A stretch of DNA of 64,000 nt from Escherichia phage AV109, in the sequence record OR352939.1; one strand, given 5' to 3'. Below are positions 183-25,383 of the stretch, in pieces. The first letter of the stretch is position 1, and every line of letters starts with the position of its first letter. The notes beneath the pieces are model-generated. The model was not told the DNA's origin. It did not search any database and worked only from the letters and a program-made list of their open reading frames with translations. Made by a program: the position numbers and the translations under genes.

Positions 183-1355
183 TTATTCATCGAAATCTTC
201 CATTTCGTCAAGGTCGTTTTCTATATCTGCTGCAGACGGAGCATCAGAAGTTTTAACCGGAACTTTAGTTGTTGCTTTGCAATTAATAAGGTCGTTAACA
301 GCGTCATCAACTTCTTTAATAGAAGAGATAGCACCTAGTTTATATTTAGTTTCAATTGCATCTCGGAAAGGTTTGTGTTTAAACAAAGGTCCCCAGAATT
401 CTACACAATCAGTAGCTTTAGCACGCCATGATTTTTCTTCACGAATCATTTCACCTGTTTCTTCGTCAAGGAATTCGCGAGCATACCAACCGGCTTTAGG
501 CTTAACTACAAAACCAATTTCAGTTGCCATTTCTAACAAGCCACTGAATGGGTCAATACCGCCATCAAAATTAACCGTGATTGGGAAAGTAGATTTTTCT
601 TTAACGGTGCGAGATTTTTCTGCTTTCAACGTGAAGTCATAACCGGTCAATTCTGTACCTTCTTTAACCTGACGTTTAGAGATAAAGAATACAGTGTTAG
701 CAGAATAAAGAATACCTGTACCACCACCCATAATCTCTTTAGGATACAATCCGCCGATTTCCATTGCTGTATGGTTGATTGCAACACACGGAATATCTTT
801 AATAGTCAGATAAGGAGTCACAATACGGAAAAGAGATTTAAGTGCCTTAGCACGAGACATATCACCTACAACTTTCTCGTTCAATGCATCTTCAGTTTCT
901 TTCTTAGATGCAGTATTACCGATTGAATCGATAAAGATAATAACTTTATCACCCCGTTCAATCGCGTCAAGCTGATTAGTCATATCAACTTTAAGTTGTT
1001 CGACGGATTGAATCGGAGTATGAACTACACGGTCTAAATCAACACCCATTGAACGAAAATAAGATTCTGAAGCACCAAATTCTGAATCATAGAACAAACA
1101 AATTGCATCTTTATATTTCTTCATATATGCTGCAACCATGGTCAGTCCAAACAACGTTTTAAAGTGTTTAGAAGGAGCAGCAAAAATAGTCAAGCCTGAT
1201 TGCAATCCTGCATTCAGAGCACCACCTAGTGCAATATTCAACATTGGAATACGAGTAGGGACTTCATCACGATTATTAAACAGCTTAGACTTAGTCAAGT
1301 CTGCAGTCATTTTAGAAGTAGAAGCTTTAATCAGACGAGATTTTAAATCAGACAT
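183..1355 (-). CDS. uvsX: UvsX RecA-like recombinase
   Basis: 390 aa; N-terminus MSDLKSRLIKASTSK and overall sequence match T4 UvsX as I recall it; T4 gene order. Confidence 0.97.
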   Translation of the reverse strand: MSDLKSRLIKASTSKMTADLTKSKLFNNRDEVPTRIPMLNIALGGALNAGLQSGLTIFAAPSKHFKTLFGLTMVAAYMKKYKDAICLFYDSEFGASESYFRSMGVDLDRVVHTPIQSVEQLKVDMTNQLDAIERGDKVIIFIDSIGNTASKKETEDALNEKVVGDMSRAKALKSLFRIVTPYLTIKDIPCVAINHTAMEIGGLYPKEIMGGGTGILYSANTVFFISKRQVKEGTELTGYDFTLKAEKSRTVKEKSTFPITVNFDGGIDPFSGLLEMATEIGFVVKPKAGWYAREFLDEETGEMIREEKSWRAKATDCVEFWGPLFKHKPFRDAIETKYKLGAISSIKEVDDAVNDLINCKATTKVPVKTSDAPSAADIENDLDEMEDFDE

Positions 1356-1453: not shown

Positions 1454-2002
1454 TTAACGAGCCCATTTGATAATTTCTGTAATCAAATAATTACGTTCGC
1501 TTGCATTAAATCCTATAACTTTGTTAGCACCATCATGATTAAGTAATTGATACGTTTGGATTTTGTTATGAATTGCAAACTCTTCAAAATGTGAAATGAC
1601 TGTATTAAAACCGAATGAAGACAAAGTAATAAGGTCGTCTTCAAAACTTTCAGTCATTTCGTTACGTGTTAAAATAATTGTGAACACATCATGGTTTTGG
1701 CAAAGACGAACATAATCCTGTTCATAAACGTCAAGAACCGAGTCCGCATCTTGTCGAATACGTCCATAAACCCAGTTACTAATATATCCACGGTCTAACA
1801 GATAAATCTTAGTAGGGTCTAAATAATTCAACATCGTTTCGAAACAGCCAACTTCATTTCGAGACTTAACATCGAAACGTCCATCAACTGTTCGTTTAGG
1901 GAAATCAATTTTTACATATCTTTCACTAATTTCCATTATGTCATTAATGAAAGTTGTTTTACCAGCATTATCCGGTCCATCTACTAAAATAATTTTAGCC
2001 AT
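1454..2002 (-). CDS. P-loop kinase, thymidylate-kinase-like fold (nucleotide/nucleoside kinase candidate)
   Basis: 182 aa; Walker A GPDNAGKTT near N-terminus, DRGYISNWVYG resembles TMPK DRY..S motif; start abuts stop of upstream ORF. Confidence 0.55.
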   Translation of the reverse strand: MAKIILVDGPDNAGKTTFINDIMEISERYVKIDFPKRTVDGRFDVKSRNEVGCFETMLNYLDPTKIYLLDRGYISNWVYGRIRQDADSVLDVYEQDYVRLCQNHDVFTIILTRNEMTESFEDDLITLSSFGFNTVISHFEEFAIHNKIQTYQLLNHDGANKVIGFNASERNYLITEIIKWAR

Positions 2003-2003
2003 T

Positions 2004-2903
2004 TTATTCCTCGATTACGACATCTTCATATTTAGGTATATTATATGGTGAAGAAATTAAAGCATTAAAGTAGATGAACTCACCAAGACCTGGATGAAAT
2101 ACTTCTTCAGGATTTTCGAAATATTGAATCTTCGGACGTCCTTTAAGAATTTGATAGTACTCAGTTTTAGTTGGTTTAAAAATTCGAATCAACGCTTCTT
2201 CAGGATACTTATTTCTGTCAAAGCTATTATTTGGATCGGTTATATAAAGCGGTTGACCTAATTGAATTGCGCATTCAACAACTTGTTCAAAACGATAGCA
2301 TGGGTCACTAATTCGAAATGGATGAAAAATACCATCTAGATGAATAGGAGCCAAATCACCTACAAGACGCTGCATGATGGAAGGACGTATAACTTTCTGC
2401 GTTACGATAATCTTATTACCATCTGCACCTGCGTTAACCAGCACTTCTTTTTGACGTTCATTCAACACAGTTGTTTGGATTGAACGATTAACCGACAATA
2501 TGTCGGTTTTTAAGAATTCGTCAATATAAAAACGTGGTTTATTAGGGTCTGCGGTGATATTGAAATTGAATTCTACATCAAAAGCGCCGTCATATCCAGT
2601 GATATCTGTGATTAGAAAATCACAATCATAATAAGCAATTAATGAATCAACCACAAATTCATTTTCAGACCAGAAATATTTACGAGTGTTATACGCGTTA
2701 TCTTTATACCATAATGGAACAAACTTAAATTCTGGAAAAAGACGTTCGCATTCTTTAATATCAGATGCATTACGTGGATATGTAATCACATCACCCGGAT
2801 TAGCACGGTGCAAATGAAGTTGGAAGTTGCCATCCTTAAGGATAGCATACTGTCCAGTTTCATAAGACCGCATACTCAAGATAGGTACGCGGAAAATAGC
2901 CAT
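2004..2903 (-). CDS. hypothetical protein occupying the position of T4 beta-glucosyltransferase
   Basis: 299 aa ORF; start overlaps gene 42 stop by 1 nt (TAATG); no motif I can assign. Confidence 0.55.
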   Translation of the reverse strand: MAIFRVPILSMRSYETGQYAILKDGNFQLHLHRANPGDVITYPRNASDIKECERLFPEFKFVPLWYKDNAYNTRKYFWSENEFVVDSLIAYYDCDFLITDITGYDGAFDVEFNFNITADPNKPRFYIDEFLKTDILSVNRSIQTTVLNERQKEVLVNAGADGNKIIVTQKVIRPSIMQRLVGDLAPIHLDGIFHPFRISDPCYRFEQVVECAIQLGQPLYITDPNNSFDRNKYPEEALIRIFKPTKTEYYQILKGRPKIQYFENPEEVFHPGLGEFIYFNALISSPYNIPKYEDVVIEE

Positions 2904-3619
2904 TAGTCAAGGAATCCTTTAACATAATCAAAATCACGTTCAAACACATGGGCACTTACCATGGTATGAGTATAATCACCAACTTCTACACCACATTCGT
3001 TAGCGATATAATGAAGTAATTTTCCTTGGAGATAAAAATCCAACTGCATAACAACAGCACAGTTCTGGGAACGCATATGACAGTGGGTATAAAGCTTACC
3101 GTCACGAATATAATAGGTCACTGAGTCAGTACATGGATATTCAAGCGTTTCGTCTGAATCAAGCAAAGCCTGATCAGAACTTTCTAGAATTTGGAACACA
3201 ACTCTTCGGGAGTTAGGCTTCTCTTTAAGTTCTTTTAGAAGAGCTGGTAATTGAGCCGCAATGCGAGGACCATAGAAAGTGTTGAAGTTCGCCGGCAAAA
3301 CATCTGATTTTGGTTTAGAAATAAATTTAGCGACATTAGGATATGCCTTAAACGCTTCTTCTGCGTTGGTACCACCAGAAATCATAAACTTCCAGAAGTC
3401 TTCGGCATATTCATAAGAGATGCGGTTAATACGTGGGTCGGTCATTTTGAATGATGATGGAGTGTCAACAACTACTGTCATAGACCCAATTTCATTACAA
3501 CGTCCAATACGAGAATCAGTTACGAATTCCGGGTTTTCTAAAATTTCACGATTGACTGCTTTAAATGCGGCTTGAAAATCTGCGGCTTTGATATATTTCA
3601 TTGTGTTATGTTTTCCCAT
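2903..3619 (-). CDS. 42: dCMP hydroxymethylase (thymidylate-synthase fold)
   Basis: 238 aa; CTDSVTYYIRDGKLY...HMRSQNCAVV region resembles T4 gp42 catalytic core; position between uvsX and 43. Confidence 0.85.
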   Translation of the reverse strand: MGKHNTMKYIKAADFQAAFKAVNREILENPEFVTDSRIGRCNEIGSMTVVVDTPSSFKMTDPRINRISYEYAEDFWKFMISGGTNAEEAFKAYPNVAKFISKPKSDVLPANFNTFYGPRIAAQLPALLKELKEKPNSRRVVFQILESSDQALLDSDETLEYPCTDSVTYYIRDGKLYTHCHMRSQNCAVVMQLDFYLQGKLLHYIANECGVEVGDYTHTMVSAHVFERDFDYVKGFLD

Positions 3620-3661: not shown

Positions 3662-3901
3662 TTATTTGAATTTCTTGGCAATGTTGATATAACGTAAAGC
3701 TTCAGTATCAATACTTCCAAGAACACTATGAAGAAATGCATCAGCGTAGTATTCCAATTGAACAGGTTCTTTAATCACTTTAGCCGCTTTGGTTTCAAAC
3801 AGGCCCATCAGGGCCTTTTTAAGAATTTGTTCGTTAGTGTTCAGTTTAATAGTCAAAATCTCTTCGTTAAGTTTATAATTAAAAGTTTTTCTAGAAATCA
3901 T
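3662..3901 (-). CDS. hypothetical protein (79 aa)
   Basis: ORF; start overlaps stop of upstream 389-aa ORF (ATGA). Confidence 0.5.
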   Translation of the reverse strand: MISRKTFNYKLNEEILTIKLNTNEQILKKALMGLFETKAAKVIKEPVQLEYYADAFLHSVLGSIDTEALRYINIAKKFK

Positions 3902-5067
3902 TCCGGGTACCTCAAAGCGTCATCAGAGTTAGTTATATCAATAATAGATATAGAGTTTTCTGCTAACCCGTTTTTAGATAATTGACGTTTATAATATCTT
4001 TCACAATATGTACACGTCGTCCCGCAGATTTCATTAGCACAATCGAAATCTGGATGTCTGAACCACCTTTTTTCTAAAAAGCCATCTAACAAAGAGGTTT
4101 CAATATTTACTGTATGTGAAAACTCAGTTTCGTTTTCAAGAGTGAAAATGGTCTCTAAAGGCTTCCACAGTTCTAACAAATTACCTTCAAACTTTTCAGA
4201 AGCGTATGCTTCAAGAACTTTCAAAATGTAGTCTGTGCTACCTGTACGTCCTGAAACTTTGAATTGAGTGATACCAATATCATTATAAAGTTTCAAATCT
4301 TGAGGACGAACAAAACGAGTTCTCAACCAGTTAAATGGGTCTGTATCACGAGCTTTAATACAGTGCTGCATAGGATATCCGTTTAAGGATTTAGCATCAT
4401 CAGCTGTAACATCAGTACTATGGAAAATATAGCAAGAGTCACGATAGCTACAATGTGTTGTATACCCTTTACCAGCATTAGAACAGAACTCATTTACAAG
4501 AACTTCAAATATTATATTGTTCTTATTGCAAAACTCTGCTGCACGCTTCAGGAAAGAAACTGAACGGTTCTTATGAATTCCGCAGCAGACCTTTTTGATA
4601 TTATACTGGTCATGCAAGTATTTGATTTGAGTTACAGCATCGACATGTAGAATTGTTGAAACTTCAATCTCAATGTCTTTATTGACTTCACGAACAATTT
4701 CCATAACAACAGGGTTAGCGATAGTAATACGCCATACGCCTATTGACCAAAGATACTGAACATAATCCTGAATAGCTTTCTTCTTCCACTCAACTAGTTC
4801 TCTTTTTGAACCAGGATTTATCGTGTTGAGTGTATAGTTAAAGCAAATACCTAATTCGTTACAACGTTTAACGTAGTCTTCTAACATCTTTTTGTCAACG
4901 TCAGGAAGCCTAAAATCAGGTCTGGCTGCTACAAAAGCCATTTCTCTTGTAGAGCCATATACTTCGTTTATCAAGCTATTAGGATAGGTTTTATTGAGCT
5001 CTACGATTTTATCAAGAAGAGCTAAATCAAAATTCGTTCCGATTTTAAAAGTATTCATTTTTTGCAT
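3898..5067 (-). CDS. hypothetical Cys-rich protein; candidate transferase or Fe-S enzyme of the sugar-modification module
   Basis: 389 aa; EVLVNEFCSNAGKGYTTHCSYRDSC and C-terminal CANEICGTTCTYC cysteine clusters; loosely reminiscent of U32-family signature but not a strict match. Confidence 0.55.
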   Translation of the reverse strand: MQKMNTFKIGTNFDLALLDKIVELNKTYPNSLINEVYGSTREMAFVAARPDFRLPDVDKKMLEDYVKRCNELGICFNYTLNTINPGSKRELVEWKKKAIQDYVQYLWSIGVWRITIANPVVMEIVREVNKDIEIEVSTILHVDAVTQIKYLHDQYNIKKVCCGIHKNRSVSFLKRAAEFCNKNNIIFEVLVNEFCSNAGKGYTTHCSYRDSCYIFHSTDVTADDAKSLNGYPMQHCIKARDTDPFNWLRTRFVRPQDLKLYNDIGITQFKVSGRTGSTDYILKVLEAYASEKFEGNLLELWKPLETIFTLENETEFSHTVNIETSLLDGFLEKRWFRHPDFDCANEICGTTCTYCERYYKRQLSKNGLAENSISIIDITNSDDALRYPE

Positions 5068-5113: not shown

Positions 5114-5500
5114 TTATAGATTCGGTTTATACGATTTAAATGTTTCGAATTCGCCTTTATTCATAAGAGCTTTGAATTCGTCAGGACGCATAGCTTTGTC
5201 GTCGATAATCCAATCATATACTGGTTTATGTGTTAGCAAATTATGGTACTTCAAGCCAATGTTTGCCAAGTTCTGAATCAGACTTGGGAGAATGTCAATT
5301 GCTATACGACCAGGACCTACTGACTTCATACCGCGAGCAGTGTAAAGCGTTATGGTATGCCCTGCATCATACAGGGCATTAATGGCAGACACCATTTCGA
5401 CGTCTGGTTTGAAGTTCACGTAATCACGATTGTTATTCCACTCTGTTATACAATCATCGACATCAAAACAAAGATTAAGCATGTTTTCTACACGGTGCAT
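5114..5500 (-). CDS. HAD-like phosphatase (putative sugar-phosphate phosphatase)
   Basis: Motifs FDVDDCIT, TLYTARG, conserved K, WIIDDKA consistent with HAD motifs I-IV; probable start at the ATG overlapping upstream stop (TAATG); track ORF extends to 5515. Confidence 0.5.
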   Translation of the reverse strand: MHRVENMLNLCFDVDDCITEWNNNRDYVNFKPDVEMVSAINALYDAGHTITLYTARGMKSVGPGRIAIDILPSLIQNLANIGLKYHNLLTHKPVYDWIIDDKAMRPDEFKALMNKGEFETFKSYKPNL

Positions 5501-7185
5501 TAGATTCGTTCCCATTGATGAGTGATATCGCCACCGATTGGACGATAGGAAACACCAGTTTCTTTATCAGTTAGTACCCATTTACCAGGATTTTTTGTAA
5601 TCAGAGTAGCCGTTACAGGTTCTGCTACGTCATAACTAATAGAGCCGTCCTGAAGTACACGGCCCATGTTACGTAATTGCTTAGTCAGAAGTTCCATACC
5701 TTTATAATATGCGGCTACCGCTTTAAGTGGATTATTCTTGAAATAACCACCTAATGCAATCCAGATAATTGCCACAGCCAAATGATGATATTCATTAAAC
5801 GAACTCAGCTTTCCATATTTGTAAACTAATGGATTGATGTTAATAGTCACATTACAAGTTGTTTCATCAATAGTAAACTGTCCCCAGGTCGGATTAGCAT
5901 TGAATTCATCATAACCTGAAACAGCATAAAGCACTTTAGCTTCATCATACAATTTTGGCCCGTAAATCTTGGTTTCACCAAAATATCCACGAGGGTCGAT
6001 AAATTTGACTTCGCCGTTATCAGTAATCATAGTATTACTGAAGTTCGGGTCACCATGAATAACAGAGTACTGTCCCTGAGAACGGTTATGATAACGAATA
6101 AGGTGTTCTAAAGCTTGTTTCAGCATTGGCTTCAGACGTCCAATCTTAGTGTAGTTCACATGTGTGATTTTACCAAATGAATCAATCAACGGTTGAATGC
6201 TTTCACAACGATCAATAACTTTCGTATAGAATTCTTTAGTGAAATCACGACGAACAGTTTCAGGACTTACAAAATAAGTGTCTGTGCTGAATTTCAGTGC
6301 ATCTAAAATTGCATCAACAATTTGTGGACGAGCAAGACTTGATTTGGATTTAATATATTCAAATGCCGGCTTACCTTTAATGCGTTCCATTTCAAAGTTA
6401 TTTTCATTAACAGAAACTAACTGAGGAACTGAATCTGATTTCACTTTAAGATACCATGAAATCTCATCTTTCTGAAGAGCTCGACCTTGTTCAGTTAATG
6501 CGAATTTAGTTACAGTTTCTTCACCAATTTCAACTGCATTAAAACTACGATTAAGTTCACGAACTTCATGAGCCTTTTCAAGTTTAGGCATATCACCAAG
6601 GTCGATGATATTCATAAGCTCTGATTTATTGAATGCGCCGCTGTAAAGGAATTCTACGAAATCACGTCCTTTGCAGTATTCATGAATTTCCTCATCGGTA
6701 GAACCCATGTAGAATTCCCAGTCTTTGAACTGGTAAATTCCCACAACATTACCACCTGTTGAACCTACGTTAGTGATATTTTCACCATCGAAATTATATC
6801 GACATTCGTCACCCTTAACATAGATTGCGTTAACATTCCAAGACCATGAACCAAAATCAGGAATAATATCACACCAGTTAACAATTACGTTATGGCCGTC
6901 TAAATCTTTGTGTAATTTAGCAAGAGCATAAGCAGAACCATACGCTTCATCGACTGTACGAATAGTCACATTGAACCCTTCTTGCTCACAATAAGCTCGA
7001 ACAGTTTCAGCAAATTTTGAATGAACTACTACAATAATTTCATCTGCGCCAAGGTCAGAATAAATTGTATACAAATTGCTCAGAATAGTGTCTTGTTTAT
7101 AGTTAACAAGCACCTTAGGAATATGGTGAGTAATTGGATATAAACGAGTTGCCAATCCAGCACCAAGAATAACAGCTTTTTTCAT
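5500..7185 (-). CDS. bifunctional sugar-1-phosphate nucleotidyltransferase (N-terminal) / sugar kinase (C-terminal, APH/choline-kinase fold)
   Basis: 561 aa; N-terminal ILGAGLATRL nucleotidyltransferase glycine loop; C-terminal HGDPNFSNTMI...FIDPRGYFG kinase catalytic loop; SD GAGGA upstream. Confidence 0.8.
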   Translation of the reverse strand: MKKAVILGAGLATRLYPITHHIPKVLVNYKQDTILSNLYTIYSDLGADEIIVVVHSKFAETVRAYCEQEGFNVTIRTVDEAYGSAYALAKLHKDLDGHNVIVNWCDIIPDFGSWSWNVNAIYVKGDECRYNFDGENITNVGSTGGNVVGIYQFKDWEFYMGSTDEEIHEYCKGRDFVEFLYSGAFNKSELMNIIDLGDMPKLEKAHEVRELNRSFNAVEIGEETVTKFALTEQGRALQKDEISWYLKVKSDSVPQLVSVNENNFEMERIKGKPAFEYIKSKSSLARPQIVDAILDALKFSTDTYFVSPETVRRDFTKEFYTKVIDRCESIQPLIDSFGKITHVNYTKIGRLKPMLKQALEHLIRYHNRSQGQYSVIHGDPNFSNTMITDNGEVKFIDPRGYFGETKIYGPKLYDEAKVLYAVSGYDEFNANPTWGQFTIDETTCNVTININPLVYKYGKLSSFNEYHHLAVAIIWIALGGYFKNNPLKAVAAYYKGMELLTKQLRNMGRVLQDGSISYDVAEPVTATLITKNPGKWVLTDKETGVSYRPIGGDITHQWERI

Positions 7186-7226: not shown

Positions 7227-7370
7227 CTAGTTAAAGCATTCATACTTTGCTTGTAGTCCAATCATAATCCATCCAATTACAAGTGTTGGAATCATTACCG
7301 GAGCCGTTAAGCTCCAGTAGATAGTCATGACAAGCATCAATAGTAAAAGTCCTATTGTTATTGCTTTCAT
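7227..7370 (-). CDS. small hydrophobic membrane protein (47 aa), not in ORF track
   Basis: MKAITIGLLLLMLVMTIYWSLTAPVMIPTLVIGWIMIGLQAKYECFN; ATGA overlap with SIS gene stop; SD GAGG 8 nt upstream. Confidence 0.45.
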   Translation of the reverse strand: MKAITIGLLLLMLVMTIYWSLTAPVMIPTLVIGWIMIGLQAKYECFN

Positions 7371-8002
7371 TGTTCGCCTCGTAACATGGCACCTAGTGCA
7401 CCGCCTGGATGGAACTTAAGGAAATCATTAGAGGTAAATCCACGTTCAGACGAAAGGTTGATAGCAAACGTATCGATAAGCGCTAACAACAATGTAGTGG
7501 ACATTGTCGGAGCTAAAGAGTTCTCGTCAACTTCTACCGCGATACCAGTACAGAACGTATAATCAAAAAGAGCTTCGTATTCTTGTGGAATGTCAGGGTT
7601 ACAATGTAACAGAATCTGTTTAACCTGAGGACGAATCATACGAAGATGTTTAGCAACACCTATCATTTCTTCAGTCTTACCAGAACGACTAATATGAATC
7701 AACACGTCATTAGGTGCAATAAATCCTGCGTCACCATGAGAATAATGCCCAGTGTTCAAATACATGCTAGGAATACCTAGTGAAGCAAATGTCTCGGAAG
7801 CTTTAGTTGCGATATTAGCATTCTTACCAACACCTGTAATAATTACCCGGCTTTCATAATTACTAAGTCCAGGGCGTCGAAGAGTTTCTAGAATAGCATT
7901 ATAACGAGCAGGGTTTTGACTAATTACTTTGGCCATAGCGGCCAAAGAAGAAGCTTGTTTTATGATTGCGTCAATAGCGATAGTAATAGGAGTAGTTTTC
8001 AT
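7367..8002 (-). CDS. SIS-domain sugar-phosphate isomerase, arabinose-5-phosphate isomerase (KdsD/KpsF) type without CBS domains
   Basis: 211 aa; GVGKNANIATK, SRSGKTEE, LAPTMSTT and HPGGALG motifs characteristic of API SIS domains. Confidence 0.8.
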   Translation of the reverse strand: MKTTPITIAIDAIIKQASSLAAMAKVISQNPARYNAILETLRRPGLSNYESRVIITGVGKNANIATKASETFASLGIPSMYLNTGHYSHGDAGFIAPNDVLIHISRSGKTEEMIGVAKHLRMIRPQVKQILLHCNPDIPQEYEALFDYTFCTGIAVEVDENSLAPTMSTTLLLALIDTFAINLSSERGFTSNDFLKFHPGGALGAMLRGEQ

Positions 8003-8042: not shown

Positions 8043-10754
8043 TCAAAAATCGAACATATCGAACAGAGATGCTTTCTTCTCGTAATCGAGTTTCGCTGCT
8101 GATGTGAATCCTTCAAGTGGTTTAATAAATGTCTTCTCAAGGAGAACAGTGTAGTCCATCCAATGAAGTACGTCGTCTTTAATTAAATCTGTGATTTCAG
8201 TACCAGAAGGCCATGCGATACATTTATCACCGAATGGGTTTCCTTCACGTAAAGGCAGAACATATACTTTTTCACCTTCTACAACTTGTGGTGCATCAAT
8301 ATTACCTTTGATAGCTCGGTTATATGTCAGAATTCCACGAATATGAAACGGGCATTTAGGACCAGGGAATCCACCGACATCATATTTAGCAATGTTATTC
8401 GCAGAAGATACCGACGCGATGCTAATATAATTCAATTGACGGAATTCTTTTTCAAACTCTTTAAAATATTCTTGTAATGATTCTTCACCTTCTTGAAGCA
8501 TACGACGAATACATTCTTTAAGAGCTTTCTGTACTGCTTTAGGAGTCGAAGATTTCTGAGTCTCTAGACCCATGATTTTGAGTTTAGGCTCAGCATAACG
8601 AGTGCCTTCCATATCCCACACGTTTAATGCATAACGTTTCTTACCAGTCCAGAATCCACCAATACCTTTAGAACCGAGCGGAGGGCCAGCAATAGCTTCT
8701 CGGTCCATGAACATTAAGTGTTGTTTATTGTTCATGTATTCACACATTTCACGGAAACCTCTATCAATAGCTGGTTCCATACGTTCACGTGCAAACTTAT
8801 CTAAGAAGTCTACCCAATGGTTTGTATCACGGAATTTAGATTCACCAACCTTATCGATAATTTTATCAGCAGATACGTAAATAGAGTCTGTATCACCATA
8901 AAGAACGAAAGCTTCACCTTCTGTACCACAAACTTCATTCAGATATTCATTAACTTTACGTTCAATCCACTGTAAAGCCATTTGACCAAATGTTGTGATT
9001 GCAGTTGCATTACGCAAATCATAATAACGGAACCAAACGTTTCCAAGTGCACCATAAAGTGAGTTGATAAGCAATTTACGGTTAATTTGGGCAGTCATAC
9101 CCGCAACTTCAGTACGTTGAGCTCTAAACAACATTTCATTAAGAGATTTAGCAGACAACTTTTTAATCTTTTCTTTAATCTCATCGCTGAAGTCGAAACG
9201 ATAATCAACATCTAATGGTTCGTCAACAGAAAGATTAGGATTATGCAATGCCTCTTTAATTATTTCACCATTACGTTGAGCTGCAAGCATGTAACCTTTA
9301 TGTTCTTTACGTTGATTAAAGACCTTAGTGATTTCAGTTGGAACTACACCATCACGGTCTTTATAATACATCATGCCGTTAGGAGAACAACTGTACACAT
9401 CTGAAGGACGTTCAGCGATTGCGTTAATATAATCATGTAATGGAGCTACTTTAAACGTTCCTGCTATTGTTTCTGGGCTAATATTCACTTGGCGAATGAT
9501 GCTTGGATACAGAGATGTAAGGTCGAAACTCATTACATATTTGTATCGATTTGGAATAGGTTCCTTAACAAAAGCGCCAGGATAAGGTTGAACCGGGTGA
9601 GAACGACCTTGTGGAATCACCTTGTTCTGCTCTTTAAGGCTATTAAAAATAATAGCATCCCAAGTTTTAATTGGACTGAACACAGATTGAATCTGAATTT
9701 TAGCATAATAACCCATGTCCAAGCTCAAGTTGATGAACTGACGCTTAGAATCAATTTGCAATACACGATACACGTCGATAATGTTATAAGAAATATATCG
9801 TTGGTGATTGCTTTCACGAAGCTTAGAAATAGGGCCGTCATATTTCAGTTTACCAACGTTCAATTCAAATTCTGAAATGTAATCCAGAGAATACGACGGT
9901 TGATTGGTAAAAGAGAATTTTTTGTAAAGGTCAATGTAATCAAGAACAGAGATACCGAACAATGTAATGATTTCACGAGAACCATACATGTTTTCGATAA
10001 CTTTAACACGAGTTTTACGATGTGGCGATAAACGTTTCGCAGTAGATTCGCCAAAAATATTCTTGATTCGGTTATACACATATGGAATATCAAATGACTC
10101 AACGTTCCATCCAGTCAAAATGACAGGAGTTTTCTGTTGCCAGAAGTTGAGATATTCCATCAACAATTCTTTTTCGTTATCGAACGGCATATAAATGATT
10201 TTATCGATAATTTCAGATGGAACTTCATCACCGCCTTGTTCTTGAAGCTTAGCAGCGATTTCAATAGACCATTCTTCTACATTACCATACGGAGAATTCA
10301 ATAGATCAAATACGTAGAACCTGTCGTCAATTGAGTCATAATGGGTGATAGCATCAATAGGATGCTTTGCTTGTGCCGGCTCAGGGAACCCGTCCGGAGA
10401 TGTTACTTCGATGTCGAAGTTAGCCACACGAATTTTTGTATGGTCGTATTTGATTTCATAGTTATAAGTGTCAGACAAATACGCCAATTTGAAATCGTCC
10501 ATGCCAAGTGCTTCAAGTCCGATATCTTCCATGCGTTTAATCCATTGGGAGGCATCACGCATATTAGCGAACAACTTACGAGTACACGGCTTACCGTAGA
10601 TATCGAAATATTTCGTAGCCTGACTTTCCGGACAATGAGCAAACAGTGATGGTTTATATTCTACTTCACGAGTACGTTCACGGCCATTAGAATCGATGTA
10701 ACGTTCAAAAATTGAATCACCAATCTGTTCAACCGTTAAGTAAAATTCTTTCAT
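8043..10754 (-). CDS. 43: DNA polymerase (family B), RB69-type gp43
   Basis: 903 aa; sequence from MKEFYLTVEQIGDSIFERYIDSNGRERTREVEYKPSLFAHCPESQATKYFDIYGKPCTRKLF onward matches the RB69 polymerase as I recall it. Confidence 0.98.
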   Translation of the reverse strand: MKEFYLTVEQIGDSIFERYIDSNGRERTREVEYKPSLFAHCPESQATKYFDIYGKPCTRKLFANMRDASQWIKRMEDIGLEALGMDDFKLAYLSDTYNYEIKYDHTKIRVANFDIEVTSPDGFPEPAQAKHPIDAITHYDSIDDRFYVFDLLNSPYGNVEEWSIEIAAKLQEQGGDEVPSEIIDKIIYMPFDNEKELLMEYLNFWQQKTPVILTGWNVESFDIPYVYNRIKNIFGESTAKRLSPHRKTRVKVIENMYGSREIITLFGISVLDYIDLYKKFSFTNQPSYSLDYISEFELNVGKLKYDGPISKLRESNHQRYISYNIIDVYRVLQIDSKRQFINLSLDMGYYAKIQIQSVFSPIKTWDAIIFNSLKEQNKVIPQGRSHPVQPYPGAFVKEPIPNRYKYVMSFDLTSLYPSIIRQVNISPETIAGTFKVAPLHDYINAIAERPSDVYSCSPNGMMYYKDRDGVVPTEITKVFNQRKEHKGYMLAAQRNGEIIKEALHNPNLSVDEPLDVDYRFDFSDEIKEKIKKLSAKSLNEMLFRAQRTEVAGMTAQINRKLLINSLYGALGNVWFRYYDLRNATAITTFGQMALQWIERKVNEYLNEVCGTEGEAFVLYGDTDSIYVSADKIIDKVGESKFRDTNHWVDFLDKFARERMEPAIDRGFREMCEYMNNKQHLMFMDREAIAGPPLGSKGIGGFWTGKKRYALNVWDMEGTRYAEPKLKIMGLETQKSSTPKAVQKALKECIRRMLQEGEESLQEYFKEFEKEFRQLNYISIASVSSANNIAKYDVGGFPGPKCPFHIRGILTYNRAIKGNIDAPQVVEGEKVYVLPLREGNPFGDKCIAWPSGTEITDLIKDDVLHWMDYTVLLEKTFIKPLEGFTSAAKLDYEKKASLFDMFDF

Positions 10755-12809: not shown

Positions 12810-13496
12810 TTAGAAGTCGTGAGTAGAATCGGCTTCCATCGCAATAACATAACTTACTTGAGAGCTTTCAAACTTGGCTGCAACTTTATCACCAGCTCCC
12901 CACAACATTACTTTATAGTTACCTGGCTGGATTTTCATATTAGCCATATTGATTACGAAGTTAAAGTTGTTAGAACCATCATAATCGGTAAGAGTCAAAG
13001 AATACTTAGGACGAGTTAGTCCTGAATCTTCAACTTTATTATAGCCATTGATAACAATTTTACCATCTTTATTTGTAATAGCAATTGTATCAATCTGAAG
13101 ACCACGTGAAACTCGAAGCAATTGTTGAAGGTCTTCAGCTTTAATTTCAGTAATCACAGAAGCTACTGGGAATTGAATTGGCTTATTAGGAAAAACAATT
13201 GTGCTCTTGTCAGCGGCAGGCCAATAAACTGTGGAACGTGTATCTGCAATTTTAATATTGCCATCAGTGTGCATTGAAATTTCAGCATCATCAGACACTA
13301 GACTCAAAATGCTTAAGAAGCTATTCAAATCATAAAGTGCTACGTCAAAATCAATTTCATCAGAGATATTTGCTTCCGCATAAGTGGTGCCATTAACTGC
13401 ACGAGTCATAATAAATTTACCTTGACTCAGCAGAATGCCAGAGTTAATAGAAGCGAAGTTTTTCAGAATATTTACGGTTTCACGGCTAAGTTTCAT
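12810..13496 (-). CDS. 45: sliding clamp gp45
   Basis: 228 aa; MKLSRETVNILKNFASINSGILL... matches T4 gp45. Confidence 0.95.
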   Translation of the reverse strand: MKLSRETVNILKNFASINSGILLSQGKFIMTRAVNGTTYAEANISDEIDFDVALYDLNSFLSILSLVSDDAEISMHTDGNIKIADTRSTVYWPAADKSTIVFPNKPIQFPVASVITEIKAEDLQQLLRVSRGLQIDTIAITNKDGKIVINGYNKVEDSGLTRPKYSLTLTDYDGSNNFNFVINMANMKIQPGNYKVMLWGAGDKVAAKFESSQVSYVIAMEADSTHDF

Positions 13497-14392
13497 TTAG
13501 GTTTCCTATTAGCATAATAATTTGTCCAAGACCGGATAGCACCTTGGTATGATTCATCATTAAAACCATGCTGAATTGCATGTTTTCTAAATGTAATATA
13601 ACTTGGTTTTCCTAAAGCAATCCACAATTCCTTTAATTTTTGTTCATGAAATATCCATGTACCTCTAGCTTTAGATTTTCTGAATTTATCCTTAAATTCT
13701 TTGGTTGCATTTCTTTTCGAAGCTGCGATAGAGGCCTTTGCTCTATTTTCAGGTTTAGACCAATACAATGTTTTAGATATTTTTATTTTATCTTTAACAT
13801 TAGGAGAATTCATTATATCTTTAAATTTTAAAGCAAAATCTCTATCGCTAAACATTTTTTTAGAAAGAATAGAAACTTTCTCTCTTCGTTCTTTGGTCCA
13901 ATATGTTTTTTGAAATTCTCTAATTGCGTTTAAATGATTCTCCGACAATTTGCAATTTTTTCTAACACCGACGTAATCTTCGTTTATTTCGTTTTTAGAA
14001 AGTTTTACTATTTTGCCTGTTTTTAAATTTTTATACGGTGCATATCCTTTAGCTGATATTCTAGACTTCTCGTTAGCATAAGCCTTATTAAAATATTTTT
14101 CATTTGAAACGGCTTTAACATTGAGTTGGAATAGTCTTTCTATTCTTCTAGGGTCTAATGTGGTTTCGCCTAAAATTTTTACAGAATATTCGCCTTGGTC
14201 TATTAATCTGGTATATAAAGGAGAATACGAGGAATTAACACTACCGGTATATATTTTACCGGTAGAATCTTCAATAATATCCTTTCCATTAAAATGACAC
14301 GAAACTTTAGAACCTATATAATAACACGGGTATTCATTTTTAATCTCACGATTATAAAAGGTTATAAGATATATTAAATTCATAATTATCAA
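13493..14392 (-). CDS. GIY-YIG-like seg-type homing endonuclease inserted between rpbA and 45
   Basis: 299 aa; N-terminal LIYLITFY...CYYIGSK GIY-YIG-like motif; basic C-terminal region; paralogous to ORFs at 18245 and 25374. Confidence 0.55.
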   Translation of the reverse strand: MIIMNLIYLITFYNREIKNEYPCYYIGSKVSCHFNGKDIIEDSTGKIYTGSVNSSYSPLYTRLIDQGEYSVKILGETTLDPRRIERLFQLNVKAVSNEKYFNKAYANEKSRISAKGYAPYKNLKTGKIVKLSKNEINEDYVGVRKNCKLSENHLNAIREFQKTYWTKERREKVSILSKKMFSDRDFALKFKDIMNSPNVKDKIKISKTLYWSKPENRAKASIAASKRNATKEFKDKFRKSKARGTWIFHEQKLKELWIALGKPSYITFRKHAIQHGFNDESYQGAIRSWTNYYANRKPK

Positions 14393-17229: not shown

Positions 17230-18248
17230 TGTGTTGCCTCAATATAAAGTTCGTTGGAATATTTGACCAGCGCTTCTCTGTCTTCATCTGAGATATCTGG
17301 AATCGCGTCAATATATTCTTTAATGATATCTTGAAGTGATTTAATCTCGATTTCCTGGTCGTCATCAGATTCAACACTGTTATCAACTTTAGAAACCATA
17401 CGAAGAGAGTGAACTACTTTTTCAAGTTCAGATTCAAACTTAGTCAACTCTGAATCAATTTCTGATACTATAACACGTACGGCTAGATTAGTATAATCAG
17501 AATAATTGATTTTGCCTTTAAATGGATAAGTGATTCGTCGATGCCATGTTGTTTCATTAGGAATAAATTCCATACGTTCAACATCAGTGTCAAATACCCA
17601 GAATCCGCGAGGGTCGTTCTCATCACCTGCAGTAAGGGTCCATGGTGTCCCAATATATTTGACGTTAGCAGCTTCAGAGATTGTGTGGAAGTGGCCAGAC
17701 CAGACTTGTTTATAGGTCTTTAAGAAATCAGGTTCAAGCCCATGAGACTTCATTCCTTTATAGAAATAGAAGCCATTTAATTCCCAGTGCCCAACACAAT
17801 ACGCTGCAGAAGAAGTCTTGATGTGCTCTAAGATTTCACCTGTATTTTCTTCACACATCCATGGAATCAAATCAATCAAGCACCCATCAAAATCTACTGT
17901 AGTTGGCTTATCATAAATTATTACGTTTTTACGATGGCTCAATAATTCTTGAACAGTGTTAGGATATAAGGTTGTTTTATAAAAGAGATCATGATTCCCA
18001 AGTATTGTATGGACTGTTATACCAGCGGCTTCCACCAAATCAAACATTTCACGCGTGAATTCCATACAACGTTGTGTGGTGTGGGCTCTGACATCAAATG
18101 TATCACCATATTGAATCCATGTTGTTATTCCATTTGCGACGGAATAGTCGATCATTTGTCTGAAACCGTCACGTTGTATAGCTTGAATCCAATCGTCGTC
18201 TTTTTTGACGCCTAGATGCAAATCGCCTATATTAAGTATTTTCATCAC
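17226..18248 (-). CDS. 47: recombination nuclease subunit gp47 (Mre11/SbcD-like phosphoesterase)
   Basis: 340 aa; GDLHLG, GNHD, GHFH metallophosphatase motifs; T4 gene order. Confidence 0.92.
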   Translation of the reverse strand: MMKILNIGDLHLGVKKDDDWIQAIQRDGFRQMIDYSVANGITTWIQYGDTFDVRAHTTQRCMEFTREMFDLVEAAGITVHTILGNHDLFYKTTLYPNTVQELLSHRKNVIIYDKPTTVDFDGCLIDLIPWMCEENTGEILEHIKTSSAAYCVGHWELNGFYFYKGMKSHGLEPDFLKTYKQVWSGHFHTISEAANVKYIGTPWTLTAGDENDPRGFWVFDTDVERMEFIPNETTWHRRITYPFKGKINYSDYTNLAVRVIVSEIDSELTKFESELEKVVHSLRMVSKVDNSVESDDDQEIEIKSLQDIIKEYIDAIPDISDEDREALVKYSNELYIEATQ

Positions 18249-19048
18249 ATACCTTTAAATTTGGAGTAAATTATATTGTGGTACGATATATCAGGAAACC
18301 CTTTATCGACCGCAATTTTTCTAAACTTATTAGGACTTATTTTACCACACTCCATCCATAATGCAAACAACTCGTCAAAATGCTCATATGCTGGACCTCG
18401 ACGAGCTTTTGACACAGCAGCACTTATGCGAGCCTTTTTCTCAGAATCAAGGTTTTTAAGAGAATTACTTATTTTATTTTTTTGCTCTTCTGAATTGAAG
18501 GTGCCTTTTTCCCAGCCTAAAGGTTGGCTTCCTTCATGGAACATTTTTCTTGAAGTTCCATTGGTATACCATATTTTACCTTTATTGTGCCCTGATGCTT
18601 TATATTTTGGTGAGCGTCCTTTTATAAATCCTTCAGGTATAGTAGGAGCAAATGTTTGTTCAAGGGTTTCTGGGTTATACGAATGTATGTTATTTTTGGC
18701 GTTATGAGACCCATATAATGGGTGATTTTTACCAGAAACATCACGCCCAAAGAAACCAGTTGGTGATGCCAAAGACATATTCATATACAAAGGATTTTTA
18801 TGAGCTTGAACTCTAATTTGATAGTCCTTTTCCACCTTTAAAGCTTCTTCTCGTGTTGGATGTTCGCTCAAAATACAAGAATCAAACAACGTAGGATTTT
18901 CTAAAAGTTCTTTGTTATAAATTTTACGATAGGCTTTAGATAGAATAGTACCATGATACCCGTTTAAATGTTTTTCTAAGCTAGTCGAACCTATGTAAAA
19001 AGGTGGTAGCTTATCTCCAGAATAAATTGTCAAATAGACTATAAACAT
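18245..19048 (-). CDS. GIY-YIG-like seg-type homing endonuclease at the position where T4 carries alpha-glucosyltransferase
   Basis: Probable start MFIVYLTIYSGDKLPPFYIGSTS at 19048 with AAGGAG SD 7 nt upstream; track ORF extends to 19117. Confidence 0.55.
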   Translation of the reverse strand: MFIVYLTIYSGDKLPPFYIGSTSLEKHLNGYHGTILSKAYRKIYNKELLENPTLFDSCILSEHPTREEALKVEKDYQIRVQAHKNPLYMNMSLASPTGFFGRDVSGKNHPLYGSHNAKNNIHSYNPETLEQTFAPTIPEGFIKGRSPKYKASGHNKGKIWYTNGTSRKMFHEGSQPLGWEKGTFNSEEQKNKISNSLKNLDSEKKARISAAVSKARRGPAYEHFDELFALWMECGKISPNKFRKIAVDKGFPDISYHNIIYSKFKGM

Positions 19049-23098: not shown

Positions 23099-23569
23099 TT
23101 AATCATGTTTCCACACCCCATCGGTATTTGACCAAAGTCGCTGATTATCTGATCCTCGCCACAGTTTTTTGGTCGGAAGATTTTTCTCATACTTCCCATC
23201 AATAATAACATCAACATATTTAAGCATTTCTAGTTGTTTAATATCTTCAAACTTATATCCTGTCCACAACCAAATGCTTTTATTGGGATAAAGATTTTTT
23301 ACTGTTTGAACAATGCAATGAATAACATCTCGGTTATCAGGATAGAGAGGGTCACCTCCGGTTATAGTTAATCCTTCTATATAATCATTATTCAAACATT
23401 CAATTAATTGTTCTAGTGTTTCACCAGTGAATGGAATACCATTTCTAGCATTCCATGTTGATTTATTATAACACCCTTCGCATTTATGCAAACAACCTGT
23501 AACGAAAAGAACGACCCTGCATCCAGGGCCATTCACAAAATCGCAAGGATAAAATCTATCATAATTCAT
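23099..23569 (-). CDS. nrdG: anaerobic ribonucleotide reductase activating protein NrdG (radical SAM)
   Basis: 156 aa; CLHKCEGC cysteine motif; 4-nt overlap with nrdD. Confidence 0.9.
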   Translation of the reverse strand: MNYDRFYPCDFVNGPGCRVVLFVTGCLHKCEGCYNKSTWNARNGIPFTGETLEQLIECLNNDYIEGLTITGGDPLYPDNRDVIHCIVQTVKNLYPNKSIWLWTGYKFEDIKQLEMLKYVDVIIDGKYEKNLPTKKLWRGSDNQRLWSNTDGVWKHD

Positions 23570-25383
23570 TGGTGTTTAACCCTATGCATTATTTCTTTAT
23601 TTTTACCGAGATTAAATCCGCGTTCGTTCGGATTTCCCAAATAACCGCATGTTCTTCTTATGGTGTTCATCTTTTTAGGATCAGTTTCTCCACAGATAGA
23701 ACAAACAAATCCGTTTTCAGTAGGAGTCATTTCATGGGTACTTCCACATGTAAAACATTTATCTACTGGCATATTAACACCAAAATAATCTAAATGCTGT
23801 GCAGCATAATCCCACACGGCCTCAAGACCTTTTAAGTTATTTTTCATATCAGGAAGTTCAACATAAGAAATGTGACCACCTGTCGCAATGAAATGATACG
23901 GCGCTTCACGAGAAATCTTTTCAAACGGAGTAATATTTTCTTCTACTGAAACGTGGAAACTGTTAGTGTACCAGCCTTTATCGGTAACATCTTTTACACT
24001 TCCATATTTTTCTGTATCAAGTTTACAGAAGCGATAACAAAGGTTTTCAGCAGGAGTAGAATACAAACTAAAAGCAAAACCAGTTCTTTCAGTCCACTGT
24101 TTAAGATGAGCATTCATTTTAGTTAAAATTTCTTGTCCAATATCACGACCGACAAGAATATTCAATTCATGAATACCGATGTATCCTAAAGACACTGAAC
24201 TTCTACCGTTTTTAAATAGCTCAATTATATCGTCATCAGGTTTAAGACGAACCCCGAATGCACCTTCTTGGTAAAGAATAGGAGCAACAGTCGCTTTAAC
24301 TCCTTTTAAGGAACTAATTCTACACATCAAAGCTTCAAAACACAGGTCCATTCGTTCATTGAATAATTCAACAAATTTCTGTTCATTGAACTGTGTTCCA
24401 ATATAAGAATCTAATGCGATACGAGGAAGATTCAGTGTTACAACGCCGAGATTATTACGACCGTCAAGAATTTCATTTCCAGTTGAATCTTTCCATACGC
24501 TCAAGAAACTACGGCAACCCATCGGAGAAACTGGAACTGAAGAACCGGTAATAGCTTTATTATTCTTAACTGAAATAATGTCAGGATACATTCTTTTGCT
24601 TGCACATTCTAACGCAAGTTGTTTAATATCATAGTTTGGATCATCTTTATAAAGATTAACACCTTCTTCAAAAAACATAACAAGCTTAGGGAAAATAGGA
24701 GTTATTCCATCACGTCCAAGGCCTTTAATGCGGTTTTTAAGAATTGCCTTCTGAATCATTCGTTCAGTCCAGTCAGTTCCCGTACCAAATGTAATTGTCA
24801 CAAAAGGCGTTTGTCCGTTTGAACTAAAGAGAGTGTTTACTTCATATTCATAAGCTTGGAATGCATCGTATACGTCTTTTTCTGTTTTAGATTGAGCATA
24901 ATTCAGAATGTCTGGTATTTGCCATTTTTCTGCATCTTCAACATGTTTAGCGTATGTGCGTTTAACATAAGGAGAAAGAACTTTATCGACATTCGCAAAT
25001 GTAGTTCCGCCATACTGGTGTGAAGCAACTTGTGCAGTAATTTGTGCCATAATTGCAGTAGCAACGCCAATAGATTTAGGCGTTTCAATTTGAGCATTGC
25101 CTAATTTAAATCCATTCTCAAGCATTCCTTTTAAATCTACTAAACAGCAATTAGTAAAAGGCAATGATATACTATAATCTAAATCGTGAAAATGAATTAA
25201 TCCGACATTATGAGCATTTACAATATGGCTCGGAAGAATACTACAAGCGATATGTTTAGAAACAATACCGGCCATTAAATCTCTTTTTGTTGGAAAGACA
25301 CGAGAATCTTTGTTGGCATTTTCGGTATTTAATTCTTTATCTTTATTTGAAATAAAATTTAAAACATCTTTCTCTAAAGACAT
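23566..25383 (-). CDS. nrdD: anaerobic ribonucleoside-triphosphate reductase NrdD
   Basis: 605 aa; C-terminal glycyl-radical motif RTCGYLG and zinc-ribbon CxxC pairs. Confidence 0.97.
   Translation of the reverse strand: MSLEKDVLNFISNKDKELNTENANKDSRVFPTKRDLMAGIVSKHIACSILPSHIVNAHNVGLIHFHDLDYSISLPFTNCCLVDLKGMLENGFKLGNAQIETPKSIGVATAIMAQITAQVASHQYGGTTFANVDKVLSPYVKRTYAKHVEDAEKWQIPDILNYAQSKTEKDVYDAFQAYEYEVNTLFSSNGQTPFVTITFGTGTDWTERMIQKAILKNRIKGLGRDGITPIFPKLVMFFEEGVNLYKDDPNYDIKQLALECASKRMYPDIISVKNNKAITGSSVPVSPMGCRSFLSVWKDSTGNEILDGRNNLGVVTLNLPRIALDSYIGTQFNEQKFVELFNERMDLCFEALMCRISSLKGVKATVAPILYQEGAFGVRLKPDDDIIELFKNGRSSVSLGYIGIHELNILVGRDIGQEILTKMNAHLKQWTERTGFAFSLYSTPAENLCYRFCKLDTEKYGSVKDVTDKGWYTNSFHVSVEENITPFEKISREAPYHFIATGGHISYVELPDMKNNLKGLEAVWDYAAQHLDYFGVNMPVDKCFTCGSTHEMTPTENGFVCSICGETDPKKMNTIRRTCGYLGNPNERGFNLGKNKEIMHRVKHQ

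Follow-up and report, generated by a model that had tools for sequence, protein, structure and literature searches.

A U32-family protein in the arabinosyl-5-hydroxycytosine module of RB69-like phages: a candidate oxygen-independent pyrimidine hydroxylase

The gp50 gene and its module

Arabinosyl-5-hydroxycytosine shields many coliphages that are candidates for therapy from restriction and CRISPR. The DNA considered here is a stretch of 64,000 nucleotides, hereafter the window, from Escherichia phage AV109 (sequence record OR352939.1), an RB69-like Mosigvirus whose 6.6-kb module for this modification is 99% identical to those of Escherichia phages AV114 and G2469. The module is flanked by uvsX (183..1355) and the gp43 DNA polymerase gene (8043..10754), and the module genes described below all lie on the minus strand. 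The gene of interest, at 3898..5067, is the counterpart of RB69 ORF050c, or gp50, and encodes a predicted iron–sulfur (Fe-S) protein of the U32 family. Its product is proposed, with somewhat more in favour of the idea than against it, to be an O2-independent, prephenate-dependent pyrimidine C5-hydroxylase that would supply 5-hydroxy-deoxycytidine and back up gp48, the thymidylate synthase (TS) homolog of the same module.

The first-pass annotation had placed an open reading frame (ORF) at exactly these positions, with 389 amino acids from the first ATG, and it is a real gene. Orthologs with 80–100% identity occur in 221 phage records (tblastn, all at least 80%), from phages infecting Escherichia, Klebsiella, Serratia, Proteus, Yersinia, Enterobacter, Edwardsiella, Erwinia, Pectobacterium and Shewanella, and an exhaustive HMMER search returned 1185 cluster representatives at E ≤ 1e-3. 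No other protein of the module is as conserved within Straboviridae: the median identity is 84% for gp50, versus 80% for gp48 and 59–73% for the others. Translation probably starts at M4 (position 5058), giving 386 amino acids, since orthologs and the HY126 annotation begin at that residue. The TGA stop overlaps the ATG of gp49 (ATGA, 3898–3901), with GAGG 9 nt upstream, so that the translational coupling once suggested for both sides of the gene holds downstream; upstream it does not, as 46 nt separate gp50 from the gp51 stop. A scan for promoters and terminators gave 23 promoter-like sites versus 27.8 expected from shuffled sequence and, being no better than chance, supports no promoter upstream of gp50.

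The chemistry of the module is known from RB69, the DNA of which carries beta-D-Araf-(1→3)-alpha-D-Araf-5-hydroxy-2′-deoxycytidine (Araf, arabinofuranose) and not a derivative of 5-hydroxymethylcytosine (hmC) (Lee et al., NAR 2026, PMC13326640). The base is thus 5-hydroxycytosine (5hoC), where hmC had been assumed at first. Its hydroxyl is made at the level of deoxycytidine monophosphate (dCMP) by gp48, which binds flavin loosely, needs reducing equivalents, takes its oxygen from O2 according to 18O2 labelling and, when expressed alone in E. coli, yields 5-hydroxy-2′-deoxycytidine (5hodC) (PMC13326640). The gp48 homolog of the window (2903..3619), the known aerobic route, matches Pfam Thymidylat_synt, is 98–100% identical to the HY126 and RB69-group enzymes and shows the L143E, D169N, N177D signature when read by eye. 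Glycosylation is ensured by gp46:47 and gp3 (PMC13326640); the homolog of gp46:47, 5hoC-DNA arabinosyltransferase 1 (phrog_3891), lies at 2004..2903. UDP-arabinofuranose is supplied by three enzymes (PMC13326640), namely the arabinose-5-phosphate isomerase gp55 (7367..8002; Pfam SIS, phrog_5670), the bifunctional arabinose-5-phosphate kinase/UDP-arabinose pyrophosphorylase gp52:53 (5500..7185; Pfam NTP_transferase and kinase-like matches) and the haloacid dehalogenase (HAD) phosphatase gp51 (5114..5515; phrog_1238), which converts Araf-1,5-P2 to Araf-1-P. A thymidylate-kinase-like nucleotide kinase, the gp45 homolog, completes the set (1454..2002; phrog_761; PMC13326640, Table 1). The gp46/47 and gp52/53 genes, split in the RB69 reference record, are intact single ORFs here (299 and 561 amino acids, at 2004–2903 and 5500–7185), which supports the view of Lee et al. 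that the splits are sequencing errors (PMC13326640).

Family, fold and conserved cysteines of gp50

The first-pass annotation took the gp50 product for an orphan, perhaps the missing transferase of an hmC sugar or, alternatively, a metal or Fe-S enzyme that further processes the sugar or the base. Its family is, in fact, recognizable. The protein exceeds the cutoff of Pfam Peptidase_U32 (PF01136; 42.2 bits versus 22.4, E = 7.4e-11, residues 97–289), as do its orthologs and homologs of 50% identity, and it matches phrog_5757 end to end. An AlphaFold2 model built from 118 homologs has a predicted local distance difference test (pLDDT) score of 94.4 and a predicted template modelling score of 0.92. 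This model has the triose-phosphate isomerase (TIM) barrel of U32 proteins, and its best match in a fold search is the U32 structure 5d88, that of Mk0906, to our knowledge the only solved member of the family; phmmer finds no match of gp50 among Protein Data Bank sequences. Profile and structure searches that set GT-A and GT-B folds against a U32-like barrel thus give the barrel and no glycosyltransferase fold. The transferase idea is lost with it, all the more as the transferases are gp46:47 and gp3 and their acceptor is 5hoC, not hmC (PMC13326640). Of the alternative, the metal or Fe-S part has gained ground and the further processing has not: RB69 DNA has no chemical feature beyond those of phage DLP3, which lacks a U32 gene, that would need an extra enzyme, and the evidence favours instead a role in making the 5-hydroxyl of the base.

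Comparison with the E. coli paralogs by profile–sequence hhalign ranks RlhA first (97.3% probability, E = 1.6e-11), before TrhP (95.5%) and UbiU (88.9%). NCBIfam equivalog cutoffs are far from reached, gp50 scoring ∼18 bits against UbiU (cutoff 440) and one homolog 17.5 bits against TrhP (cutoff 534); with scores so trivial, gp50 belongs to a separate subfamily. It is also shorter than RlhA and TrhP and lacks DUF3656.

Both cysteine strings noted at first are present in the 389-residue product. The first, EFCSNAGKGYTTHCSYRDSC, holds C195, C206 and C212, and is followed by C236; these four residues (codons within 4360..4485, minus strand) are predicted to make up the [4Fe-4S] site in the core of U32 proteins. 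The second, CANEICGTTCTYC, holds C343-X4-C348-X3-C352-X2-C355 (codons within 4003..4041, minus strand), a predicted second metal or Fe-S site that parallels the C-terminal cysteines of RlhA. Among 243 full-length homologs, down to ∼28% identity, C195, C206 and C236 are conserved at ∼100%, position 212 is cysteine in 196 and histidine in 45, and the four cysteines of the second cluster are each conserved at 95–97%. Cysteines were aligned with hhalign, as this region came out misaligned when MAFFT was applied to gp50 and its four paralogs from E. coli. C206, C212 and C236 fall on C169, C176 and C193 of UbiU, which together with C232 are the demonstrated [4Fe-4S] ligands of that protein (PMC6747719). 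In RlhA, C206 and C212 fall on C169 and C176, essential for 5-hydroxycytidine (ho5C) formation as are cysteines of the C-terminal region (PMC5727448), and C236 falls on the third cysteine of the motif. On these alignments, gp50 very probably binds an Fe-S cluster.

Other core residues point in the same direction. E188 aligns with E161 of RlhA, N81 lies within TLNT, which contains a shared LNT motif, and K270, G273 and R274 align with KIEGR in a shared K-x-x-G-R motif; across the family, each of the five is either invariant or conserved at 90% or more. The C348-X3-C352-X2-C355 spacing invites a radical S-adenosylmethionine (SAM) reading, which was rejected because the Radical_SAM profile gives no match and the motif lies C-terminal to the barrel. 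C343 is as conserved as the CX3CX2C cysteines and adds a fourth cysteine, unlike the open-iron site of radical SAM enzymes; this suggests that the second site is fully ligated. It would give a single polypeptide two metal centres.

Prephenate genes, phage neighbourhoods and host oxygen

Characterized U32 hydroxylases require prephenate, which chorismate mutase makes and which, for UbiU/UbiV, is the demonstrated source of the oxygen atom (PMC10990095). Genes for prephenate supply accompany those of the gp50 family in several phage groups. In Erwinia phage Virsaitis27 (Winklervirus), the gene that overlaps U32 at its 3′ end encodes a type II chorismate mutase (CM_2, 44.6 bits, with the cutoff at 27). 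This mutase occurs in 54 phage records, whose genera are all carriers of U32, and lies between the U32 and TS genes wherever its position was read, both from annotations and at 12 of the 16 Straboviridae loci; the distant Shewanella phage Thanatos is among these cases. Metagenomic phages that are not T4-like show an independent arrangement. A type I-beta 3-deoxy-D-arabino-heptulosonate 7-phosphate synthase (DAHPS) gene directly follows U32 in two of them (loci L007 and L026), and a DAHPS–chorismate mutase fusion (DAHPS-CM), with both Pfam domains above threshold, lies two genes before U32 in four (L037, L038, L040 and L042). All six genes are within 2 kb of U32, and the closest named cellular homologs of the fusions are DAHPS-CM enzymes of Bacteroidota. 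On this linkage gp50 is likely to use prephenate.

As the module makes arabinose 5-phosphate, it was tempting to read the DAHPS-like neighbour as a 3-deoxy-D-manno-octulosonate 8-phosphate (KDO8P) synthase. This was rejected on the scores (124–237 bits with DAHPS I-beta models versus 30–63 with KDO8P synthase models), on the four copies fused to a chorismate mutase domain and on their Bacteroidota DAHPS-CM kin. Two variants of the region were also seen. In Virsaitis27, a gene for a Seg-like homing endonuclease (L002, 5352–5990) lies between the HAD phosphatase and U32 genes. In Klebsiella Marfa-like phages (L013, L017 and L018), the module is rearranged: U32 is present, the gene for the gp45-like kinase now immediately precedes it, and no match to chorismate mutase or arabinose-5-phosphate isomerase is found near the module.

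Between gp50 and gp48 in the window lies gp49 (3662..3901), a 79-residue helical protein with a weak structure model (pLDDT 65), which is confined to Mosigvirus-like phages. A diverged chorismate mutase was considered and discarded, as BLASTP finds no similarity, hhalign gives a probability of 0.2% and Yersinia phages carry both genes. In many close relatives gp49 is truncated or frameshifted (clusters of 47–58 residues, 40 residues in HY126 at L003 6161–6283, several two-piece tblastn matches), while gp50 remains 99% identical in phages with a damaged gp49. Thus gp49 looks dispensable or decaying.

The neighbourhoods were surveyed at 51 loci with family members, 16 from Straboviridae and 35 others, by probing their ORFs with the module proteins. 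The TS-type hydroxylase is found at all 16 Straboviridae loci and at 1 of the 35 others (within 10 kb). For the gp46-type glycosyltransferase (phrog_3891), the counts are 16 of 16 and 20 of 35 (within 6 kb), the gene often being immediately upstream of U32 at the latter. Chorismate mutase is present at 12 of 16 and 4 of 35; counting DAHPS and/or chorismate mutase, the figures become 12 of 16, all with chorismate mutase only, and 6 of 35. Kinase/nucleotidyltransferase genes of the gp52:53 type (16 of 16 and 12 of 35) and arabinose-5-phosphate isomerase genes (12 of 16 and 10 of 35) follow. Further neighbours outside Straboviridae are nucleotide kinases, dCMP deaminase, enzymes of the dCTP-deaminase/dUTPase type, a TET-associated glycosyltransferase (TAGT) and UDP-galactopyranose mutase. 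Since U32 often adjoins a DNA O-glycosyltransferase, which needs a hydroxyl acceptor, and 34 of the 35 loci have no TS homolog nearby, U32 seems to stand in these phages where RB69 has its TS-type hydroxylase.

Some loci are of interest in their own right. In phage-like contigs of very large size (L006, of 466 kb, and L008/L009), which have Pol III alpha as their polymerase, genes of the gp50 family lie in replication modules, directly after a dCMP deaminase gene and near genes of the uracil-DNA glycosylase family and for thymidylate kinase, with no sugar genes nearby; their substrate might be a uracil nucleotide. Two loci (L010 and L034) have, at ∼6.5–14 kb, the order kinase, phrog_3891 glycosyltransferase, U32, TAGT (E = 4e-8), dCTP deaminase/dUTPase, DNA polymerase and UDP-galactopyranose mutase. 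U32 stands there at the place expected for a TET/JBP dioxygenase, and the set hints at a DNA modification of the galactofuranosyl-hydroxypyrimidine type. A radical SAM gene (L011, 5980–7011), flanked by the genes for the nucleotide kinase and the phrog_3891 glycosyltransferase, lies just upstream of U32. Finally, a distant relative (28% identity; L061 7001–8128, L062 1674–2801) is found directly downstream of a GT1 O-glycosyltransferase (UDPGT/EryCIII-like) in a cluster resembling those for non-ribosomal peptides. A condensation domain, a PIG-L deacetylase and a formyltransferase are also encoded in this cluster, which may serve a natural-product pathway with the same logic of hydroxylation followed by glycosylation.

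The distribution of the TS-type enzyme and of U32 was set against the oxygen lifestyle of the hosts. Phage records with the TS-type enzyme number 377, those with U32 221. Among TS-type carriers, U32 is absent from all 57 Acinetobacter and all 22 Rhizobium records, whose hosts are strict aerobes, versus 221 of 298 others with U32, and all 221 carriers have facultative anaerobes as hosts. With a naive Fisher test p is ∼1e-37, a value that overstates the evidence, given the small number of lineages and their kinship. The segment of U32, gp49 and chorismate mutase is absent as a unit from Dhakavirus CLB_P2 and Acinetobacter phage KARL-1, where the HAD gene directly adjoins the kinase or TS genes and the rest of the module is kept.

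The window also encodes, at 23099–25383 on the minus strand, an anaerobic ribonucleotide reductase NrdD (605 amino acids, NRDD E = 3.8e-170, with a glycyl-radical domain) together with NrdG (156 amino acids), the radical-SAM activase of NrdD. Judged by these genes, the phage is equipped for O2-free synthesis of DNA precursors, and NrdD/NrdG are a precedent for oxygen-independent duplicates. Elsewhere among the replication genes, three minus-strand ORFs of 267–296 amino acids (13493–14383, 18245–19048 and 25374–26195, one of which abuts nrdD) share similar N-termini (PPxYYIGSK/T) reminiscent of GIY-YIG homing endonucleases of the Seg type.

Proposed reaction, competing explanations and known systems

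In the proposed mechanism, gp50 would be a soluble enzyme that hydroxylates C5 of a deoxycytidine substrate without O2, the oxygen atom coming from prephenate, as presumed for RlhA, TrhP and UbiU/UbiV. The core [4Fe-4S] site and the second four-cysteine site would conduct away the two electrons withdrawn from the pyrimidine ring; in a next step, prephenate would lose CO2, yielding phenylpyruvate, and pass hydroxide to C5. Cytosine C5 is a reasonably probable target. The exact substrate is a more tentative matter, dCMP being favoured because of the nucleotide-metabolism neighbours and because gp50 has no nucleic-acid-binding domains. The resulting 5-hydroxy-dCMP would join the route of the gp48 product, with phosphorylation, incorporation into DNA and arabinosylation by gp46:47 and gp3. 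Where RB69-like phages infect facultative anaerobes, gp50 would take the part of gp48 under anoxia, a back-up role for which the chances appear evenly balanced. Many uncultivated phages show no TS-type enzyme near the gene, and in these a gp50-type U32 protein would be the sole hydroxylase. A bolder proposal, for which the odds fall a little short of even, makes gp50 the founder of a large and mostly viral subfamily of U32 proteins that would hydroxylate deoxypyrimidines at position 5 with prephenate and independently of O2, the first of this class in DNA modification.

Several points weigh against gp50 as an O2-independent, prephenate-dependent hydroxylase. It is not an ortholog of any characterized U32 protein (∼18 bits versus cutoffs of 440 and 534), and so far no U32 hydroxylase has been reconstituted in vitro (PMC10990095). 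Known U32 hydroxylases have cysteine spacings of CX6CX15CX3/4C, or of CX6CX16CX38C in UbiU, whereas that of gp50 is CX10CX5CX23C, with C195 upstream and not at the position of UbiU C232; with its fourth ligand in a family-specific position, the cluster of gp50 is deduced by analogy. Mosigviruses, including that of the window, have no chorismate mutase of their own and would rely on host prephenate, as gp49 is not a chorismate mutase, is confined to Mosigvirus-like phages and is often truncated. The oxygen correlation is phylogenetically non-independent and also one-sided, since ∼40 Escherichia and ∼15 other enterobacterial phage records lack U32 despite facultatively anaerobic hosts (the one examined is Dhakavirus CLB_P2). 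In the metagenomic loci, the TS-type enzyme was looked for only within 10 kb of U32. The nearest named DAHPS-CM relatives include aerobic Bacteroidota, so that phages with U32 alone cannot be said to infect anaerobes. As for novelty, the gene and its U32 label were already known; the functional assignment, the link to the shikimate pathway and the wide viral distribution appear new. The literature searched holds no paper joining U32 proteins to phage 5hoC, and two recent papers outside its coverage may treat the gene.

Among the alternatives, the one that survives best keeps a prephenate-dependent hydroxylase and changes its substrate, to host rRNA or tRNA, to dUMP or to cytosine already in DNA. 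RlhA, the closest E. coli paralog, speaks for RNA; the megaphage-like contigs place the gene after dCMP deaminase, the maker of dUMP; and in L010/L034 it adjoins TAGT, of a family that usually partners enzymes acting on DNA. Such substrates are nevertheless unlikely, as gp50 lacks the long C-terminal domains of RlhA (653 amino acids) and TrhP (453 amino acids), its gene sits in DNA-modification and nucleotide modules beside nucleotide kinases, dCTP/dCMP-processing enzymes and DNA glycosyltransferases, and RB69 DNA shows only a cytosine-derived 5-hydroxy modification.

The literature leans instead towards a sugar-pathway enzyme that makes or tailors UDP-arabinose or the attached arabinose. The position of gp50 inside the module, between the HAD phosphatase and the TS homolog, suits this role, as does the co-occurrence of U32 with arabinose-activation genes at 10–12 metagenomic loci. 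Lee et al. list gp50 in their Table 1 as a "sugar or heterocycle reductase" from a fold match to 5d88, with no discussion (PMC13326640), BASEL phage records annotate a "putative enzyme involved in UDP-arabinose biosynthesis", and a paper of June 2026 still terms the neighbouring genes sugar-modifying. This explanation is improbable on several grounds. The disaccharide core on 5hodC, alpha-D-Araf and then beta-D-Araf, is the same in RB69 and in the Acinetobacter phage DLP3, which has no U32 gene, so that U32 is not needed for the sugar chemistry, and a sugar-pathway or reductase role is disfavoured. UDP-Araf synthesis is reported to be complete with the isomerase, AfhE and AfhF (PMC13326640), and RB69 DNA contains neither a reduced sugar nor a reduced base. 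The adjacent chorismate mutase and DAHPS genes would be left unexplained, as would the loci with dCMP deaminase and Pol III and no sugar genes.

An electron-transfer or flavin-reducing partner of gp48, itself not a hydroxylase, would make sense of the two conserved cysteine clusters, of the loose flavin binding and need for reducing equivalents of gp48, and of the neighbouring U32 and TS genes at all 16 Straboviridae loci. It is very improbable, given that gp48 alone yields 5hodC in E. coli, that many phages carry gp48 without U32, that 34 of the 35 other viral loci have U32 without a nearby TS homolog, and that the linkage to chorismate mutase and DAHPS would be left aside. Least credible is a genuine U32 peptidase or a glycosyltransferase: database records do name gp50 a peptidase, protease or collagenase-like protease, and some U32 proteins have been reported as collagenases (discussed in PMC5727448), but a nucleotide and DNA-modification module offers no protease substrate or rationale, there is no glycosyltransferase fold and the transferases of the module are already assigned, and it is the hydroxylase branch that suits both the conserved cysteines of Fe-S type and the neighbours from the prephenate pathway.

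If gp50 is the O2-independent hydroxylase proposed here, the consequences would reach beyond RB69. The only known route to the 5-hydroxyl requires O2, yet the gut in which these phages live is largely anoxic, and a second, O2-free route would explain how the modification is maintained there; phages would be expected to differ with oxygen in their fitness and in how sensitive they are to host defences. A phage-encoded chorismate mutase or DAHPS-CM would secure the oxygen donor, shikimate genes having been captured for this purpose and not for amino acids. In many uncultivated phages, very large ones included, U32 and not the TS homolog would be the entry to glycosylated 5-hydroxypyrimidine DNA, a chemistry thereby extended to phages without the TS-type enzyme. 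A soluble single-subunit enzyme with a small nucleotide substrate could also allow the first in vitro reconstitution of a U32/prephenate reaction.

Known U32 systems provide the closest comparisons. RlhA (YdcP), the U32 protein that synthesizes 5-hydroxycytidine at C2501 of E. coli 23S rRNA, requires Fe-S biogenesis and prephenate (PMC5727448). Like RlhA, its best profile match in E. coli (97.3%), gp50 is proposed to hydroxylate C5 of cytosine; C206, C212 and E188 align with the essential C169 and C176 and the important E161, and both proteins have further cysteines, essential in RlhA and conserved in gp50, in the C-terminal region. Unlike RlhA, gp50 has 389 instead of 653 amino acids, lacks DUF3656 and the rRNA-binding region, and differs in cysteine spacing (CX10CX5CX23C) and in presumed substrate, a deoxynucleotide instead of rRNA; the two are not orthologs. 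UbiU–UbiV are U32 Fe-S hydroxylases with prephenate as oxygen donor that replace the flavin monooxygenases UbiI, UbiH and UbiF under anoxia (PMC6747719, PMC10990095). C206, C212 and C236 match ligands of UbiU, and both systems have two clusters per functional unit, those of gp50 being predicted. The differences are that gp50 has both cysteine sites on one polypeptide and not in a heterodimer, its fourth ligand elsewhere, a hydrophilic substrate and no UbiT-like lipid-binding partner.

The other comparisons concern pairs of enzymes that carry out the same step. With the TS-type 5hodCMP synthases (RB69 gp48, DLP3 gp80, HY126), gp50 would share the product and the downstream pathway, and in Straboviridae the genes are neighbours; folds are unrelated, Fe-S and prephenate stand against flavin and O2, and gp48 is experimentally proven whereas gp50 is predicted. 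In the formation of 5-hydroxyuridine at tRNA position 34 (ho5U34), a prephenate-dependent U32 protein, TrhP, and an unrelated O2-dependent enzyme, TrhO, make the same 5-hydroxypyrimidine, a dual pathway that gives robustness across oxygen levels (PMC6599085), as is proposed for gp50 and gp48. By analogy, the redundancy would here be that of a phage, with a TS homolog in place of a rhodanese as the O2-dependent partner and DNA precursors as substrates. The T4-type NrdAB and NrdDG reductases catalyze another reaction with other enzyme families and serve as an analogy only; like gp48 and, possibly, gp50, they are O2-dependent and O2-independent enzymes for the same DNA-precursor step in one phage.

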